From a bacterium (GTDB taxonomy: Bacteria > Patescibacteriota > Minisyncoccia > Phycocordibacterales > UBA6899), in the NCBI GenBank assembly GCA_043742365.1, contig JAYTYM010000016.1, forward strand, positions 1 through 36,353: DNA of 36,353 nt, written 5' to 3'. The notes beneath the pieces are model-generated. The model worked only from the letters and a program-made list of their open reading frames with translations. It searched no databases and was not told where the DNA came from. This document shows, piece after piece, positions 13,683 to 29,245 of the stretch. Both the position numbers and the translations under genes were made by a program. Numbering within the stretch: the stretch's first letter is position 1; each line of letters starts with the position of its first letter.

Positions 13683-13797
13683 TGGTCAGTAGGGAGAATC
13701 GATTCCCCGGCGCAAGTGAAGCAGCGACCAAAATCACTTGAGCGTAGCGATTTGAGATTGGAAGTACTCTTGTGGTGTTCACTTGCTTCCCGCACCA
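13683..13797. ncRNA. tRNA-associated structured element A (short form of element B at 24246..24487); strand unresolved
   Basis: The 46-nt core at 13720-13765 matches 24358-24403 at 44/46. It is enclosed by the 9-bp helix 13712-13720 / 13778-13786, which covaries with copy B. A T-arm-like hairpin GGGGAAUCGAUUCUCCC lies at one end. Confidence 0.5.
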
Positions 13798-13840
13798 ATA
13801 TAAAAAAATCCTCTAAAGGATTTTTTTATATTGGTGCGGG
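13789..13840. terminator. Long perfect hairpin that incorporates the CCA end of the preceding tRNA-like element
   Basis: cccgcaccaatataaaaaaatcc-tctaaa-ggatttttttatattggtgcggg, 23-bp arms. Confidence 0.6.
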
Positions 13841-13989
13841 ACGGGAGAATCGAAGTCACGAATCACTAAATCTTTTTCGCTTTGCTCAAAAGCTTAAGTG
13901 TTCTCGACCCCGGCGCGCCACCTCACAAAGCTTCGGTATGCCTTGCGCCCAGTTCGATTCTCCGGAAGCTATGCTTCCTCCGTCCTCGC
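13832..13989 (-). ncRNA. tRNA-Gly-derived minihelix-like element with masked T-loop and about 100-nt insert; ends ..GUCCCGCACCA
   Basis: The 3' end UUCGAUU-CUCCC-GUCCCGC-A-CCA equals the T-loop, T-stem and acceptor of the adjacent tRNA-Gly(UCC). The 5' end GCG(A)GGAC mimics the acceptor 5' strand. The hairpin GGAAGC-AUA-GCUUCC follows. GGAGAAUCGAA (13953-13963 on plus) is the exact complement of UUCGAUUCUCC (13844-13854 on plus). Confidence 0.55.
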
Positions 13990-14037: not shown

Positions 14038-14038
14038 G

Positions 14039-14109
14039 TGCGGGACGGGAGAATCGAACTCCCACCAAGAGTTTGGAAAACTCCTATTCTACCATTAAAC
14101 TAGTCCCGC
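14039..14109 (-). tRNA. tRNA-Gly (anticodon UCC), CCA not encoded
   Basis: GCGGGAC-UA-GUUU-AAUGGUA-GAAU-A-GGAGU-UUUCCAA-ACUCU-UGGU-GGGAG-UUCGAUU-CUCCC-GUCCCGC-A. All four stems pair. Confidence 0.93.
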
Positions 14110-14130
14110 ATTATTTTTGATTTACTAAAG

Positions 14131-14384
14131 TTCACCAAGAGTTTGGAAAGGCCTGTAGGCACTTCCAAATTTATACTTACTGCGGTCGTTAAATTTTTAG
14201 GTCGGTGCGCGAAATGGGAATTTCGGCACACTTCCAAATTTATACTCCTTACAGGAGCTGTCCACTTATTGGGTCTTTTTCAAAAGCCCTCAATGAGTCT
14301 TACGGTGCGGGTCCCGTACCCACACCTCACGCTCTGCTCCTTAAATTTTAGGTCGCTCCCATTCTACCCTTAAACTAGTCCCGC
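14131..14384 (-). ncRNA. Promoter-proximal composite: a perfect tRNA-Gly 5' half (14355-14384) fused to about 220 nt of structured repeat modules, with no T-arm
   Basis: GCGGGAC-UA-GUUU-AAGGGUA-GAAU-G-GGAGC is followed by two CGACCUAAAA..UAUAAAUUUGGAAGUG modules. There is an 18-nt exact direct repeat at 14160-14177 and 14229-14246. A copy of the window-start module sits at 14258-14348. A 17-nt duplicate of the tRNA-Gly(UCC) anticodon/variable region lies at 14133-14149 (= 14063-14079). Confidence 0.5.
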
Positions 14385-24245: not shown

Positions 24246-24487
24246 TGGTCGGCGTGCAGGGAATCGAAGCTTACTGCTTCAGTATACCTTTGCGATTTAA
24301 TCGAAGCATAACTCCTCATAAATACCGCAAAGCTCTTCGATTCCCTGGCGTGAGCAAAGCAGCGACCAAAATCTCTTGAGCGTAGCGATTAGAGATTGGA
24401 AGTGACCAATTCTTCTTTTGCGCTCATCCGCTTAGAAGAATGGAAATACTCTCGTGGTGACTCTTGTGGTGTTTACTCACTCATCCC
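24246..24487 (-). ncRNA. tRNA-Pro-like CCA-ended structured element B (long form of element A)
   Basis: Ends CUUCGAUU-CCCUG-CACGCCG-A-CCA (C1:G72-type, Pro-like). A 13-bp perfect inverted repeat cagggaatcgaag (24257-24269) / cttcgattccctg (24335-24347) masks the T-loop. The 46-nt core at 24358-24403 is shared with element A. The helix 24350-24358 / 24472-24480 covaries with A. Confidence 0.55.
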
Positions 24488-26647: not shown

Positions 26648-26737
26648 TGGGGATAAAGCTGTGCACAGTGGGGATAAAGGACAACTCCCAATTTTGTAAA
26701 CTGTCCTTTATAAACAGTATCCACAGGTTTATCCACA
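26648..26737. promoter_or_regulatory. Cluster of four DnaA-box-like 9-mers
   Basis: TGGGGATAA at 26648-26656 and at 26669-26677 (1 mismatch each, one orientation). GTATCCACA at 26717-26725 (1 mismatch). TTATCCACA at 26729-26737 (perfect, opposite orientation). Confidence 0.5.
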
Positions 26738-26794
26738 TAATTGTGCATAACTCTGATTTAGGTGGCAAAAACTGCCATTTAGGTAGTTATTTAG

Positions 26795-26940
26795 TGGTGC
26801 GGGCAGATAGAATCGAACGCACAAGTTACTTAGTATTTTGACGCAAGAGCCTTAAAAATACTAAGTATCCGCGGTCCCACCTCGCTATCTTACAGAGCTT
26901 CGATATAGCTCCGGTCAGTTCGATTCTTCCGTCCCGACGC
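26795..26940 (-). ncRNA. tRNA-Gly-derived minihelix-like element (homolog of 13832..13989); ends ..UGCCCGCACCA
   Basis: The 3' end UUCGAUU-CUAUC-UGCCCGC-A-CCA has the acceptor of the adjacent tRNA-Gly(GCC). AGAAUCGAAC (26918-26927 on plus) complements GUUCGAUUCU (26809-26818 on plus). It shares GAAUCGAACUG, CGAAGCU.UGU.AG and GAGGUGG with the 13.9-kb copy, plus a homologous long hairpin with changed sequence. Confidence 0.55.
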
Positions 26941-26988
26941 AGGCACAAAACAAAAGAACAAGCATTCAGCTTGTTCTTTTGTGTGCCT
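26941..26988. terminator. Long hairpin between tRNA-Gly(GCC) and the minihelix-like element
   Basis: aggcacaaaacaaaagaacaagc-attca-gcttgttcttttgtgtgcct. Confidence 0.6.
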
Positions 26989-26989
26989 G

Positions 26990-27060
26990 TGCGGGCAGGG
27001 AGAATCGAACTCCCATCTTAACCTTGGCAAGGTCATGTTCTACCATTAAACCATGCCCGC
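26990..27060 (-). tRNA. tRNA-Gly (anticodon GCC), CCA not encoded
   Basis: GCGGGCA-UG-GUUU-AAUGGUA-GAAC-A-UGACC-UUGCCAA-GGUUA-AGAU-GGGAG-UUCGAUU-CUCCC-UGCCCGC-A. Confidence 0.93.
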
Positions 27061-27190
27061 AAATAATTTTTTCTTCAAAGACGGCTTTTCGATGGGAGAA
27101 CTTCCAATTCTTACTACTTTCGATCTTGGAATTTAGGTCGCCCCCACTTAGCTCAGCAAAGTTCATATTTTACCATCAAACCATGCCCGC
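27061..27190 (-). ncRNA. Promoter-proximal composite: tRNA-Gly 5' half mimic (27161-27190) plus a CGACCUAAA..UUGGAAGU module, with no T-arm
   Basis: GCGGGCA-UG-GUUU-GAUGGUA-AAAU-A-UGAAC is followed by about 60 nt and then GUUCU, which closes the anticodon-like stem. The module (27098-27140) is flanked by the helix UGGGGG / CUCCCA. Confidence 0.5.
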
Positions 27191-27200
27191 ATGTCGTCAT

Positions 27201-27229
27201 ATACTATCGAATCTTCATTAAAATGGCAA
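27201..27229 (-). promoter_or_regulatory. Candidate promoter for the minus-strand tRNA-Gly(GCC) locus
   Basis: On the minus strand: TTGCCA, 17-nt spacer, TAGTAT, ending about 10 nt before the tRNA-like 5' end. Confidence 0.45.
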
Positions 27230-27306: not shown

Positions 27307-27378
27307 GCTCTCGTAGTGAAATGGATATCACGACTGCCTTCGAAGCAGTTATTCCAGGTTCGAATCCTGGCGGGAGCA
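27307..27378 (+). tRNA. tRNA-Arg (anticodon UCG), CCA not encoded
   Basis: GCUCUCG-UA-GUGA-AAUGGAUA-UCAC-G-ACUGC-CUUCGAA-GCAGU-UAUU-CCAGG-UUCGAAU-CCUGG-CGGGAGC-A. Confidence 0.93.
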
Positions 27379-27513
27379 CAGCGAGTCTTCGAGTTGGCTC
27401 CCGAGGAGCTGAACTGCTTCAGCTCCGACAGGATTCGAAAGACTTTTCGTTGACGATTCCTAGAGTCCGAAAAGTACCTGCCGATGTAATCGGAGAATCC
27501 TGGCGGGAGCACA
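27379..27513 (+). ncRNA. tRNA-Arg-derived minihelix-like element bounded by a 19-nt direct repeat of the tRNA 3' end
   Basis: gaatcctggcgggagcaca occurs at 27362-27380 and 27495-27513. The insert carries GCUCCCG (27397-27403, complement of the acceptor 3' strand) and the hairpin GGAGCUGAA-CUGC-UUCAGCUCC. It also carries CAGGAUUCGAA (27429-27439), the exact complement of the T-loop/T-stem at 27359-27369. Confidence 0.55.
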
Positions 27514-27557
27514 AAAGCGTCTAAAAATGAGAACTGCTTCTCATTTTTAGCTTTTGT
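27514..27557 (+). terminator. Intrinsic terminator after the tRNA-Arg unit
   Basis: CUAAAAAUGAGA-loop-UCUCAUUUUUAG, 12 bp, followed by CUUUUG. Confidence 0.75.
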
Positions 27558-27760
27558 GAGACAGAGTATGTTTTGTTCAGCAGAACGAAACAACGAGTCG
27601 GGGTCGCGGAAATTTTCGAGTGAAGACGAGAAAATTATCTGTGACCTGCGCCCAGATCTCACATATCATAGAATTTCTGACATAACGTTTTAAATGAGGC
27701 CCTTTATGGGCGCTCCTATTTAATGAATTGAGCTTTTGATGACATAATACTATTATCCTC

Positions 27761-29245
27761 ATGCCCCACTTCACCATTCCTGACGAGATAAAAAACATCA
27801 CCAACACCCTACAAAGTGCTGGATTTGAGGCGTACCTCGTTGGTGGGTGCGTGAGAGATCTTTTACGCGCAACTACTCCTAAAGACTGGGATGTGACGAC
27901 AAATGCGAATCCCGAACAGATAATATCCTTATTCACTAAAACATTTTATGAAAACGAATACGGAACAGTGGGTGTGGTTAATGAGTCAATATCTGAGGAC
28001 GAGACAGAAAAACTTTCATTGCGGGTAGTAGAAATTACGCCCTATAGAAAAGAAACTACTTATAGCAACTTTCGTCATCCCGATGAGGTGGTCTTTTCCG
28101 GAAATCTGCATGATGATCTTATGCGCCGCGACTTTACCATGAACGCCATCGCGTATGATGTGAAAAATAATGAGCTTGTTGACCCATACGACGGTCAGGG
28201 TGACATAAAACGTCACTTAATTCGCACTGTGGGAAAGCCTAAAGACCGTTTTAACGAAGATGCTCTGCGCATTATGCGCGCTGTTCGTTTTGGTGCTGAA
28301 CTTGGTTTTGTCATAGAAAAAGAGACCATGGACGCGATAGTCTTGTTCGCACCTCGACTTGAGACTATCGCGGGGGAGCGTCTACGGGATGAGTTCACGA
28401 AGATAATCATGTCAGAACGACCAATGGAAGGGATTATCATGCTCGAACGAACAAAAACCCTCAAATATATCCTGCCTGAGCTTGAACAAGGTCTTGCATG
28501 CGAGCAAAATGGCGACCACATTTATGATGTGTGGGAGCATAACCTCCGCGCACTGCAGCATTCTGCAGAACGAAAGTGGCCGCTGCATGTACGCATTGCA
28601 GCGCTCTTACATGACATTGGGAAGCCTGCGACTCGCAAATGGTCAGAAGAAAAACGCGACTGGACGTTCTATGGTCACGACGTTGTCGGCGGGAGAATGG
28701 CAACGAAGATCCTTGAGCGCCTGCGTTTTCCGAAGCAATTCATTCATGATGTCTCAACGCTCGTGCGCTATCATTTATTCTTTTCTGATATTGAAAAAAT
28801 AACTCTCTCAGCTGTTCGTCGCATTGTTTCTAATGTTGGACCTGAATTAGTATGGGACCTTATGAACGTGCGGGCGTGTGACCGTATTGGGATGGGCAGG
28901 CCAAAGGAAACTCCATATCGATTACGTAAATATCATTCAATGATTGAAGAGGCGATGCGAGACCCTATATCAGTCGGAATGATCAAGCTTGATGGTCAAA
29001 AAATAATGCAAATTACAAAAGAGAGTCCGAGCCCGAGAATCGGCTGGCTCTTGCATGCACTTTTTGAAGAGGTGCTCGAAAATCCCTTATTGAACAGCGA
29101 GGAATATTTGACCGCCCGCACTATAGAACTCGCAAAAGACGACCCTGAGGTACTAAAAAAACTCGGCGAGGCAGGGAAAGAAAAAAAGGATGAGAAAGAG
29201 CAGGGAGAGGTGAATGCAATTCGACAAAAATATCGTGTTAAATAA
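27761..29245 (+). CDS. cca: tRNA nucleotidyltransferase (CCA-adding enzyme family) with HD domain
   Basis: GGCVRDLLR..DWDV polymerase-beta head, RDFTMNA, and HD motif AALLHDIGK. Confidence 0.9.
   Translation: MPHFTIPDEIKNITNTLQSAGFEAYLVGGCVRDLLRATTPKDWDVTTNANPEQIISLFTKTFYENEYGTVGVVNESISEDETEKLSLRVVEITPYRKETTYSNFRHPDEVVFSGNLHDDLMRRDFTMNAIAYDVKNNELVDPYDGQGDIKRHLIRTVGKPKDRFNEDALRIMRAVRFGAELGFVIEKETMDAIVLFAPRLETIAGERLRDEFTKIIMSERPMEGIIMLERTKTLKYILPELEQGLACEQNGDHIYDVWEHNLRALQHSAERKWPLHVRIAALLHDIGKPATRKWSEEKRDWTFYGHDVVGGRMATKILERLRFPKQFIHDVSTLVRYHLFFSDIEKITLSAVRRIVSNVGPELVWDLMNVRACDRIGMGRPKETPYRLRKYHSMIEEAMRDPISVGMIKLDGQKIMQITKESPSPRIGWLLHALFEEVLENPLLNSEEYLTARTIELAKDDPEVLKKLGEAGKEKKDEKEQGEVNAIRQKYRVK

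Follow-up and report, generated by a model that had tools for sequence, protein, structure and literature searches.

At positions 26795-26940 on the minus strand of the window analyzed here, a 36,353-nucleotide (nt) stretch of contig JAYTYM010000016.1, a structured element lies 48 nt downstream of a transfer RNA (tRNA) gene, tRNA-Gly(GCC), and ends in a copy of that tRNA's own 3' third. A first-pass annotation of the sequence had regarded it as one of two homologous RNAs in the window, and the locus raises the question of what such an element is, how it came to lie behind a tRNA gene, and which of its parts are maintained by selection. We find that the phenomenon is real and broader than the single pair of copies in the window: the element is a member of a large family of structured sequences, ~95-190 nt in length, which is found in Paceibacteria/Parcubacteria-type bacteria of the candidate phyla radiation (CPR). 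The internal helices of these elements are supported as being under structural selection, and we infer from the sequence that the element may exist as a stable RNA.

A three-armed element closed by copies of tRNA-Gly(GCC)

The tRNA-Gly(GCC) gene (26989-27060, minus strand), which was called by ARAGORN and by the Rfam tRNA model (70.8 bits), is the source of the repeated 3' third. It is separated from the element by a spacer (26941-26988, minus strand) comprised of a long near-perfect hairpin with a terminator-like core, CAGGCACACAAAAGAACAAGC-UGAAU-GCUUGUUCUUUUGUUUUGUGCCUG, which gave no call in a simple terminator scan and prolongs the inverted repeat that the tRNA 3' end forms with the 5' arm of the element. 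The element itself, all parts of which are on the minus strand, spans 146 nt, beginning with GCGUCGGGACGGAAGAAUCGAACUG at 26940 and ending with GCGUUCGAUUCUAUCUGCCCGCACCA at 26795, and adopts a three-armed fold. Its 23-nt 5' arm (GCGUCGGGACGGAAGAAUCGAAC; 26918-26940) is an inverted copy of the acceptor 3' strand, the T-stem 3' strand, and the T loop (an inverted match to tRNA positions 50-69 in a blastn comparison of the tRNA with its flanks), and is paired in the minimum-free-energy (MFE) structure. This is followed by P4 (26879-26915), in which ACC/GGU and GCU/AGC helices surround a conserved GGA/GA internal loop, with the covarying consensus pairs mapping onto this copy alongside a lineage-specific insert, AUAUCGAAGCUCUGUAAGAU. 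The third segment, P5 (26819-26876), is a long hairpin with a variable tip; in this copy, two G.U pairs and two mismatches weaken its lower part, and its upper 12 bp are perfect. The 3' arm (26798-26818), UUCGAUU-CUAUC-UGCCCGC-A, is a direct repeat of tRNA positions ~53-73, showing two mismatches to tRNA-Gly(GCC) (a 22-nt blastn match of 90.9% identity), one of which is compensated in the 5' arm by a change from G-C to A-U. The discriminator is followed by an encoded CCA (26795-26797) that is absent after the tRNA gene itself.

Several particulars of the first-pass annotation are borne out by these comparisons, viz., the 3' end carrying the acceptor end of tRNA-Gly(GCC) (UUCGAUU-CUAUC-UGCCCGC-A-CCA), the complementarity of the 5' region (with AGAAUCGAAC at 26927-26918 forming the exact complement of GUUCGAUUCU at 26819-26810), and the blocks GAAUCGAACUG, CGAAGCU.UGU.AG, and GAGGUGG, which occur in an identical order in the copy at 13832-13989. 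The same holds for the 12-bp hairpin in the upper part of P5, formed by ACUUAGUAUUUU (26866-26855) and AAAAUACUAAGU (26839-26828), and for its counterpart in the other copy, in which 11 of 13 positions were paired in a check by hand. The two copies are indeed homologous members of one family, being recovered by a covariance model (CM) at 66.2 bits (E ~2e-17; match at 26798-26931) and 65 bits (match at 13835-13965), respectively, in a search whose 23-member seed included both of them. The annotation had further described the helices as altered yet still paired; the closing helix does pair, but it is not a clean acceptor stem, as the acceptor part of the 5' arm (GUCGGGAC) resembles a UCC-type sequence and needs a register shift and a bulged A to pair with UGCCCGC.

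On its own, the element has an MFE of -55.8 kcal/mol (z = -4.67, with 0 of 200 shuffles as good), and this copy retains most of the consensus pairs, with a weak P5 base and acceptor-level pairing via the bulge. When folded along with the tRNA and the spacer as a 266-nt unit, the MFE is -121.9 kcal/mol (z = -10.3); in this optimum the tRNA T arm and acceptor 3' strand pair with the 5' arm of the element, the tRNA 5' strand pairs with the 3' arm, and the spacer hairpin forms the apex of the resulting long hairpin. The upstream part of the unit (27061-27229, minus strand) opens with the sole promoter-like site found upstream of tRNA-Gly(GCC), TTGCCA-17-TAGTAT (27229-27201), followed by a decayed copy of the tRNA 5' part (27190 to ~27140); no such site lies between the tRNA and the element.

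Family-wide covariation and tRNA linkage

We gathered 80 related loci around the CCA-enzyme gene (83 Paceibacteria loci searched, 622 kb; individual loci are given L numbers below) and derived both a consensus structure, with RNAalifold, and a CM from a 23-sequence seed alignment of the body type found in the window Gly elements (type A). The type-A CM gave 82 matches in these 622 kb of CPR sequence. Many of the tRNAs in these loci (Gly, Arg, Pro, Leu, Lys) have their own last 14-21 nt repeated 100-300 nt downstream on the same strand, with about one-third of the sampled tRNAs carrying an element, and blastn comparison of the tRNAs with their flanks recovered copies of the 3' part downstream, 91 of them direct and 74 inverted, along with 19 upstream copies of the 5' part. 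A same-strand tRNA is located at most 300 nt upstream for 66 of the 72 best CM matches and 16-81 nt away for 56 of them; most of the best matches lacking this 16-81-nt spacing are second units of tandem arrays. Metagenome contigs scanned with a pattern covering only the body, followed by a CM filter, yielded 30 confirmed elements, two-thirds of which (20/30) lie 29-81 nt downstream of a same-strand tRNA of diverse identity (Gly, Arg with three anticodons, Trp, Leu, Ser, Asn, Thr, Val, Ile, Pro) with 3' arms matching that tRNA. The confirmed elements fall in only ~24 of the 80 loci listed for this pattern (120 matches), the remaining loci being chance matches to a GC-rich pattern. The tRNA linkage is not a sampling artifact. 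The type-A body adjoins at least 15 tRNA identities in many species, and family-wide the arms match the neighboring tRNA regardless of its identity.

The anatomy common to these elements is an order of parts on the same strand as the tRNA, namely the tRNA, a hairpin spacer, the 5' arm, the body, and the 3' arm. The spacer is often a long palindrome with a terminator-like core. The 5' arm combines the acceptor 5' strand, an optional P2 hairpin with a CUGC loop, and the T-stem 5' strand plus AAUCGAA, and a conserved CGAA(A/C) motif comes after it. The body is a three-way junction that bears P4, with its GGA/GA internal loop, and P5, the long hairpin with the variable tip, while the 3' arm contains a T-loop remnant, the T-stem 3' strand, the acceptor 3' strand, and the discriminator. 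Thus arranged, the arms close the body by a helix that imitates the acceptor/T-stem minihelix of a tRNA, with the body standing in place of the T loop. At least four unrelated body types are housed in this one scaffold, of which type A is marked in the window Gly elements by GCCGGAGC...GCGAGGCGGGGUCGCGAG...CUCGUGACC.

In line with the check proposed in the first-pass annotation, an alignment of this family was assessed for pairing and double changes against shuffled and slid controls, and P3-P5 covary well above both. The seed consensus has 24 pairs, 20 of which display compensatory double changes. Among 80 distinct sequences, standard pairs fill 93.9% of the cells of P3-P5, against 67.6% when the 3' letters are shuffled and 34-46% when the partners are slid, and double changes are seen in 22 of the 24 pairs (450 double-change cells versus 136 upon shuffling). 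Every pair of P4 and P5 covaries, with the strongest signal in P5, where 98% of the cells are paired. The conserved helices are P4, P5, and P3, the last of which, at the T-stem level, constitutes the conserved closing helix. Covariation is likewise seen in B/D, a second type of body housed in this scaffold. Moreover, G.U pairs outnumber A.C combinations in P4/P5 by 55 to 15, which indicates that the strand that folds is the tRNA-sense strand. The idea of a selected structure stands for the internal helices. The annotation had drawn it from the antisense segment tracking the local T arm, and that tracking is itself seen throughout the family, but the match between arms and tRNA is mainly a matter of duplication at the DNA level rather than of gradual compensation, and hence is not by itself evidence for selection on RNA.

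Two further observations concern the modules found around these bodies. The motif GAGCGAAGCGAA, with the variants GCAAAGC and GCGUAGC, recurs at P5 tips (L078 2625-2782, L062 98-243) as well as in spacers and intergenic flanks; GCGAAGC is an unusually stable mini-hairpin. Downstream of tRNA-Pro(TGG) in L035, L037, L038, L051, and L026, there are two small hairpins (AACCGGAAGYG... and GGAAAUYUCC...), followed by copies of the variable region, the complete T arm, and the acceptor 3' strand, with no copy of the acceptor 5' strand.

Insertion behind tRNA genes and the competing readings

A close relative (L003, with a CCA enzyme 89% identical) shares the gene order of the window and has only a terminator after its tRNA-Gly(GCC), i.e., it presents an empty site. 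In L006, another close relative, which does carry an element, the sequence behind the element aligns from its first base with the post-tRNA sequence of L003 (74 of 89 positions; score 57 against a null of 6.6+/-2.1), and the L006 tRNA is itself followed by an L003-like terminator. By this match, the element separates the tRNA 3' end from its native flank, with duplicated copies of the 3' end, and in L006 of the terminator too, at its borders. For the tRNA-Gly(UCC) copy, no empty site was found via homologs of the neighboring 507-aa gene, whose surroundings show no conserved synteny and contain no tRNA. Across the family the duplicated target measures 17-60 nt, and the arms are a direct plus an inverted copy of the tRNA 3' third, sometimes along with the flank and the terminator. 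In L004/L005 (3095-3345, plus strand), an 81%-identical relative, the module of tRNA-Gly(GCC) and its element is inverted relative to the UPF0102 and CCA-enzyme genes. Tandem arrays of two or three identical or nearly identical units occur behind one tRNA in L008 (2812-3070), L046 (210-488), and L048 (3050-3340), of which the last has a terminator in each unit; an assembly artifact is possible for all three. Within one genome, elements at different tRNA types have segments of 100% identity in common (L076, at Arg and Pro; L036; L051), and the spacer hairpins of the Gly and Arg loci of L078 are 92% identical next to wholly different arms. As a separate observation, an open reading frame (ORF) resembling a response regulator is inserted beside the inverted module of L004/L005.

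We propose that the family represents a new class of structured RNA cassettes that duplicate, piggyback on tRNAs, and are selfish; we regard the chances of this proposal as evenly balanced, and a selfish hitch-hiker on tRNAs is in our view more likely than a housekeeping RNA. The element, which would have no promoter of its own, would be transcribed by read-through from the strong tRNA promoter, and the folded RNA, to go by the covariation and the G.U strand bias, would be the entity under selection. Where P3 and P1, the helix at the acceptor level, are intact, RNase P, the 3'-trimming enzymes, and the CCA enzyme could free and cap the RNA much as in an engineered tRNA scaffold. At the DNA level, the cassette would insert in a duplicative manner between the tRNA 3' end and the native flank, leaving a sense/antisense/sense triplication of the target, for which the simplest route might be fold-back or template switching at two palindromes, namely the terminator hairpin and the TCGA center of the T loop; the bodies and other hairpin modules could then be copied between such sites within a genome. 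A more novel reading, which we put forward only as a tentative possibility, would make the elements mobile structured RNAs that target the 3' end/T loop of any tRNA gene and build their own closing helix by copying the target in inverted plus direct orientation. That would imply insertion that depends on structure, is independent of sequence, and needs no element-encoded protein, with the RNA set free by RNase P, RNase Z, and the CCA enzyme, which its minihelix ends would hijack.

Several points weigh against the selfish-cassette proposal. The template-switch origin is drawn from the anatomy together with a single comparison of an empty and a filled site, and duplication of the flank is visible in only a minority of the loci. 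The loci are centered on one gene beside tRNA clusters, with a resulting bias in the counts that the metagenome scan corrects in part. One type-A subtype closes with arms derived from the post-tRNA flank (GUUGUG/CACAAC) rather than from the tRNA, in a sense/antisense/sense layout around the terminator. The terminator-like hairpin that stands between tRNA and element in both window Gly copies, as in many other members, means that expression would depend on read-through. The alignment behind the pair counts and the G.U bias was fitted to the model and so favors the structure, and a folded single strand of DNA would give the same covariation and strand bias. Finally, P1 is intact in no more than roughly one-third to one-half of the members and perfect (7/7 pairs at the expected position) in just ~18-20 of 80, and the acceptor 5' strand is recognizable in ~55% of the members with an intact 3' arm. 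The frequent decay of P1 implies that processing of the RNase P/RNase Z type is no universal requirement, and its occurrence even next to 3' arms identical to the tRNA suggests that arm identity is largely a footprint of the origin of the locus.

How far do other explanations account for the same facts? It seems fairly unlikely to us that the elements are host-beneficial, trans-acting small RNAs (sRNAs) or ribonucleoprotein modules in a tRNA-minihelix scaffold matured and stabilized by tRNA enzymes, as plant tRNA-snoRNA dicistrons and tmRNA are, with the presence/absence pattern resulting from loss via the flanking direct repeats. The strong conservation of junction nucleotides and helices over many species is consistent with such a role, as are retention at about one-third of the sampled tRNAs in streamlined genomes, the persistence of the same element at the same tRNA in related species (e.g., L036 and L040, at 95%), the presence of U at position -1 in 10 of the 16 elements with intact P1, and the CCA encoded by the window Gly copies though not by the tRNA genes. 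However, each genome has many paralogs with different arms, identical tandem units, and nested insertions, a close relative has an empty site, P1 is frequently decayed, and no conserved neighboring protein gene was seen; four or more unrelated bodies in one scaffold would also be unusual for a single housekeeping function. The duplicated tRNA end could also be read as the work of a miniature integrative cassette at the DNA level, with an attC-like folded single-strand site, a tyrosine recombinase or similar enzyme acting in trans, the tRNA 3' end serving as the att site, and the RNA fold being irrelevant. We judge this improbable, even though the sense/antisense/sense topology, in the order target copy, cargo, inverted copy, variable structure, and target copy, is as in attI/attC arrays, the directly repeated end of the tRNA resembles attL/attR, tandem arrays exist, the orientation relative to the tRNA is strict, and G.T is tolerated in folded DNA, so that the strand bias fits. 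The arms vary with the tRNA type, leaving no conserved core such as GTTRRRY, and no integrase lies between the repeats; the sole tyrosine recombinase in the 36 kb is Xer-like, with a position relative to the CCA-enzyme gene that is conserved in L001 and L003 (the two closest relatives with enough flank; in L003 it has an S15 gene beside it). The GGA/GA internal loop and the junction purines are, moreover, typical RNA motifs, and the elements reside within transcribed tRNA units.

The strong joint fold of tRNA, spacer, and element, in which the tRNA pairs with the arms, would be expected of a cis-acting RNA switch or processing signal, whose 5' arm would pair either with the tRNA 3' third or with its own 3' arm and thereby control the maturation, termination, or stability of the tRNA or the expression of the downstream gene. 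The invariable co-orientation and adjacency of the elements and the location of one window copy directly upstream of the CCA-enzyme gene point the same way. Nevertheless, such a switch is in our view very unlikely: a sequence in triplicate brings the alternative pairing with it, a simple switch based on that pairing would leave the conserved three-way-junction body without a role, only about one-third of the tRNAs have an element while close relatives manage without, and the downstream genes are unrelated and often convergent. As for the elements being the debris of decaying tRNA pseudogenes or duplications with no selected structure, partial tRNA copies, including 5' fragments, are common near tRNAs and P1 is often degenerate. 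Yet the covariation of P4/P5, which have no tRNA counterpart, far exceeds that of the shuffled and slid controls, and the same body recurs at 15 or more tRNA identities in many species; the CM-defined family and its covariation largely refute this reading, which we consider extremely improbable.

Neighboring elements, known systems, and implications

The elements at all four window tRNAs illustrate the modularity of the family, and all CM matches in the 36 kb adjoin tRNAs. The sister type-A copy (13832-13989, minus strand; fold z = -5.34), located downstream of tRNA-Gly(UCC) (14038-14109), has an extra P2 hairpin in its 5' arm and an encoded CCA; the window tRNA genes (n=4) are mostly without an encoded CCA, and both Gly elements encode one. 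A type B element (27397-27511, plus strand) at tRNA-Arg(TCG) and a type D element (~24492-24246, minus strand) at tRNA-Pro(TGG) occupy comparable tRNA-derived scaffolds, their B/D body consisting of GAAAG, a hairpin, UACC, and a hairpin with a GUA loop. A third type-A body (27553-27663, plus strand; CM 42.9 bits, E ~3e-10), which is devoid of tRNA-derived arms, is situated behind the tRNA-Arg element, directly after a bidirectional terminator (27521-27550) with the extended stem CACAAAAGC/GCUUUUGUG. It ends ~100 nt ahead of the start of the gene for the CCA-adding enzyme, a location at which L006 has two such bodies.

Other remnants around these units were also noticed. Beyond the first Gly element and the bidirectional terminator behind it, there is a second unit without a body (13684-13797, minus strand), in the order UGGUGCGGGAA (the complement of ...CCCGCACCA, including CCA), a P2 hairpin, and GGGGAAUCGAUUCUCCC. 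In the last of these, an inverted and a direct copy of the T arm meet exactly at TCGA, the palindrome in the T loop, as a turnaround at that point would produce, and the unit has the look of an 'empty' scaffold. A module of ~52 nt (ACCACAAGAGU...UUUUGGUCG) is nested in the CUGC loop of P2 at 13725-13776 and 24363-24403 (both minus strand) and in L006 (2569-2615), with the two window loci being 95% identical over 41 nt. Upstream of both tRNA-Gly genes there are decayed 5' copies (27061-27190 and 14110-14384, both minus strand), which cover positions 1-32/53 and 1-29 plus 31-47; a further hairpin family (CGACCUAAA...UUGGAAGU) interrupts them at the T loop or in the anticodon region. The copy upstream of tRNA-Gly(GCC) holds a 42-nt hairpin insert (27140-27099) in its T loop; the 5' flank that precedes this decayed copy in the window leads straight into the real tRNA in L003 and L006.

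Apart from these, a cluster of five DnaA-box-like 9-mers (TTATCCACA, at most one mismatch) falls within ~100 nt at 26648-26750, with 22 such 9-mers in the entire window against 7.6 expected by chance. L003, L004, and L006 keep this cluster, which lies between UPF0102/yraN and the tRNA-Gly unit and may serve as an origin or to titrate DnaA. The CCA-adding enzyme (27761-29245) has homologs of 60-90% identity in bacteria named Lloydbacteria, Yonathbacteria, Paceibacterota, and Parcubacteria, which identifies the window, from sample Logan SRR22198266, as part of the chromosome of a Paceibacteria-type CPR bacterium known from metagenomes only. Its genes have housekeeping functions, viz., NusA, trigger factor, ClpP, RNase Y, a Che operon, PNPase, and the Xer-like recombinase. 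Among the 30 window ORFs scanned with Pfam, a set that takes in all those above ~160 aa, there was no reverse transcriptase, transposase, integron integrase, or phage gene.

The tRNA-appended structured elements of CPR bacteria are a new and widespread class, which resembles several known systems and has the defining features of none of them. Searches against Rfam 15 (at the gathering threshold over the window, to E <= 10 around the element, and with 17 loci covering body types A-D) gave tRNAs and noise only, and the searchable full-text literature, with subscription-only literature lying outside the search, has no description of such elements. The nearest functional analogs are dicistronic genes for a tRNA and a non-coding RNA (ncRNA) and tRNA-scaffolded RNAs. 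In the plant dicistrons of a tRNA and a small nucleolar RNA (snoRNA), the ncRNA likewise lies directly downstream of the tRNA, has no promoter of its own, and is presumably freed by tRNA 3' processing; bacterial sRNAs from tRNA 3' trailers are the counterpart of these plant genes. However, the tRNA-snoRNA RNAs have no copy of the tRNA, whereas the element studied here copies the tRNA 3' third at both ends, is polymorphic, and occurs in many copies. The plant example is the tRNA-Gly-snoR43 dicistron (Kruszka et al., 2003, as cited in PMC12045711). With tRNA mimics, namely transfer-messenger RNA (tmRNA), YrlA (bacterial Y-RNA-like; RF02553; PMC4201824), viral tRNA-like structures, and mascRNA, the element has in common an acceptor/T-stem-like helix and a discriminator that close a larger RNA, and its CCA-bearing minihelix end could suit RNase P, RNase Z, and the CCA enzyme in the same manner. 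Unlike it, the mimics retain the T loop and elbow, are single-copy, and have a fixed sequence, whereas here the body replaces the T loop and the arms copy the adjacent tRNA. Model searches assign the element to neither tRNA, tmRNA, nor YrlA. The tRNA calls of ARAGORN and Rfam (RF00005) are confined to the four true tRNAs, and the element lacks a D or anticodon arm and has its T loop paired or replaced. No tmRNA was called by ARAGORN, nor by Rfam at the gathering threshold or to E = 10 over the element. The only YrlA match (28 bits against a gathering threshold of 69) is at 27327-27456 on the plus strand, spanning tRNA-Arg and the start of its element and probably driven by the tRNA itself, with none at 26795-26940; Pfam found no TROVE/Ro60 (rsr) domain in the scanned ORFs.

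On the DNA side, integrative elements reportedly target the 3' ends of tRNA genes and leave attL/attR repeats. The family under study resembles them in its direct repeat from in or near the T loop and in the displacement of the native flank beyond the insert, and differs in the size of the insert (~150-250 nt), the extra inverted copy of the target, and the association of the same body with many 'att' tRNAs per genome; the 190 nt between the repeats contain no listed ORF of 80 aa or more, and the nearest tyrosine recombinase is ~4 kb away. Compared with the attC/attI cassette arrays of integrons, there is the same imperfect palindrome with a variable, sometimes branched center, co-oriented arrays, and a folding bias toward one strand, but there is neither the conserved core (RYYYAAC...GTTRRRY) nor ORF cargo, and the arms follow the tRNA, with only a T-loop remnant in common; no IntI-type integrase or attI was seen in the window. 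Retron ncRNAs (msr-msd) offer a parallel in their closing terminal inverted repeats, the purine run after the helix, the short hairpin, and the long variable hairpin. No reverse-transcriptase domain was found in the scanned window ORFs or in the genes called in L001, L003, and L004, and we know of no retron with tRNA linkage or tRNA-derived arms. Template switching creates hairpins and small inverted triplications (PMC8794818; PMC13334657), with the sense/antisense/sense order, turnarounds at existing palindromes, and long perfect stems made in one step that are seen here; but these are mutational events that form no recurrent family, and they leave the conserved, covarying body at the second turnaround unexplained.

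Further candidates were set aside on simpler grounds. Miniature inverted-repeat transposable elements and repetitive extragenic palindromes do not fit, the terminal inverted repeats here varying by locus as the local tRNA sequence does, with a duplicated target of 17-60 nt. In phage records there were only tRNA matches, and scans of IMG/VR with 15-16-mers hit 44 loci, mostly by chance, with CM-confirmed elements in a single contig, from which it follows that the family is not phage-borne. A guide RNA for tRNA modification is discounted, the antisense arm being sequestered in cis by the 3' arm, and so is an aminoacylatable minihelix, the scaffold following Arg, Pro, Trp, and Ile tRNAs and P1 being often decayed; the synthetases for these four amino acids need the anticodon. 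No match to the hammerhead, hepatitis delta virus, or twister ribozymes or to group II domain V was apparent by eye, and there was no support from Rfam. Retrotransposition of a mature tRNA is not supported as the source of the CCA, which is present in some elements only and bears no consistent relation to the tRNA gene. TIGR arrays consist of tandem units with two 8-12-nt spacers, box C/D flanks, and a Nop-domain Tas gene (PMC12045711); by this description they too are dismissed, the units here being 95-190 nt, tRNA-linked, and mostly single, with no Nop-domain gene among the 30 ORFs.

To our knowledge, the CPR (Patescibacteria) makes up a large share of bacterial diversity, and its ncRNA content is almost unexplored. 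If the element is processed as an RNA, it would constitute a natural 'tRNA scaffold' for a functional module in these minimal-genome bacteria. If mobile, it would represent a new route by which tRNA genes are colonized without being destroyed, and the tRNA fragments and rearrangements found near tRNA genes in these genomes may in part stem from it. The definition of the element would, in addition, improve the annotation of CPR genomes.

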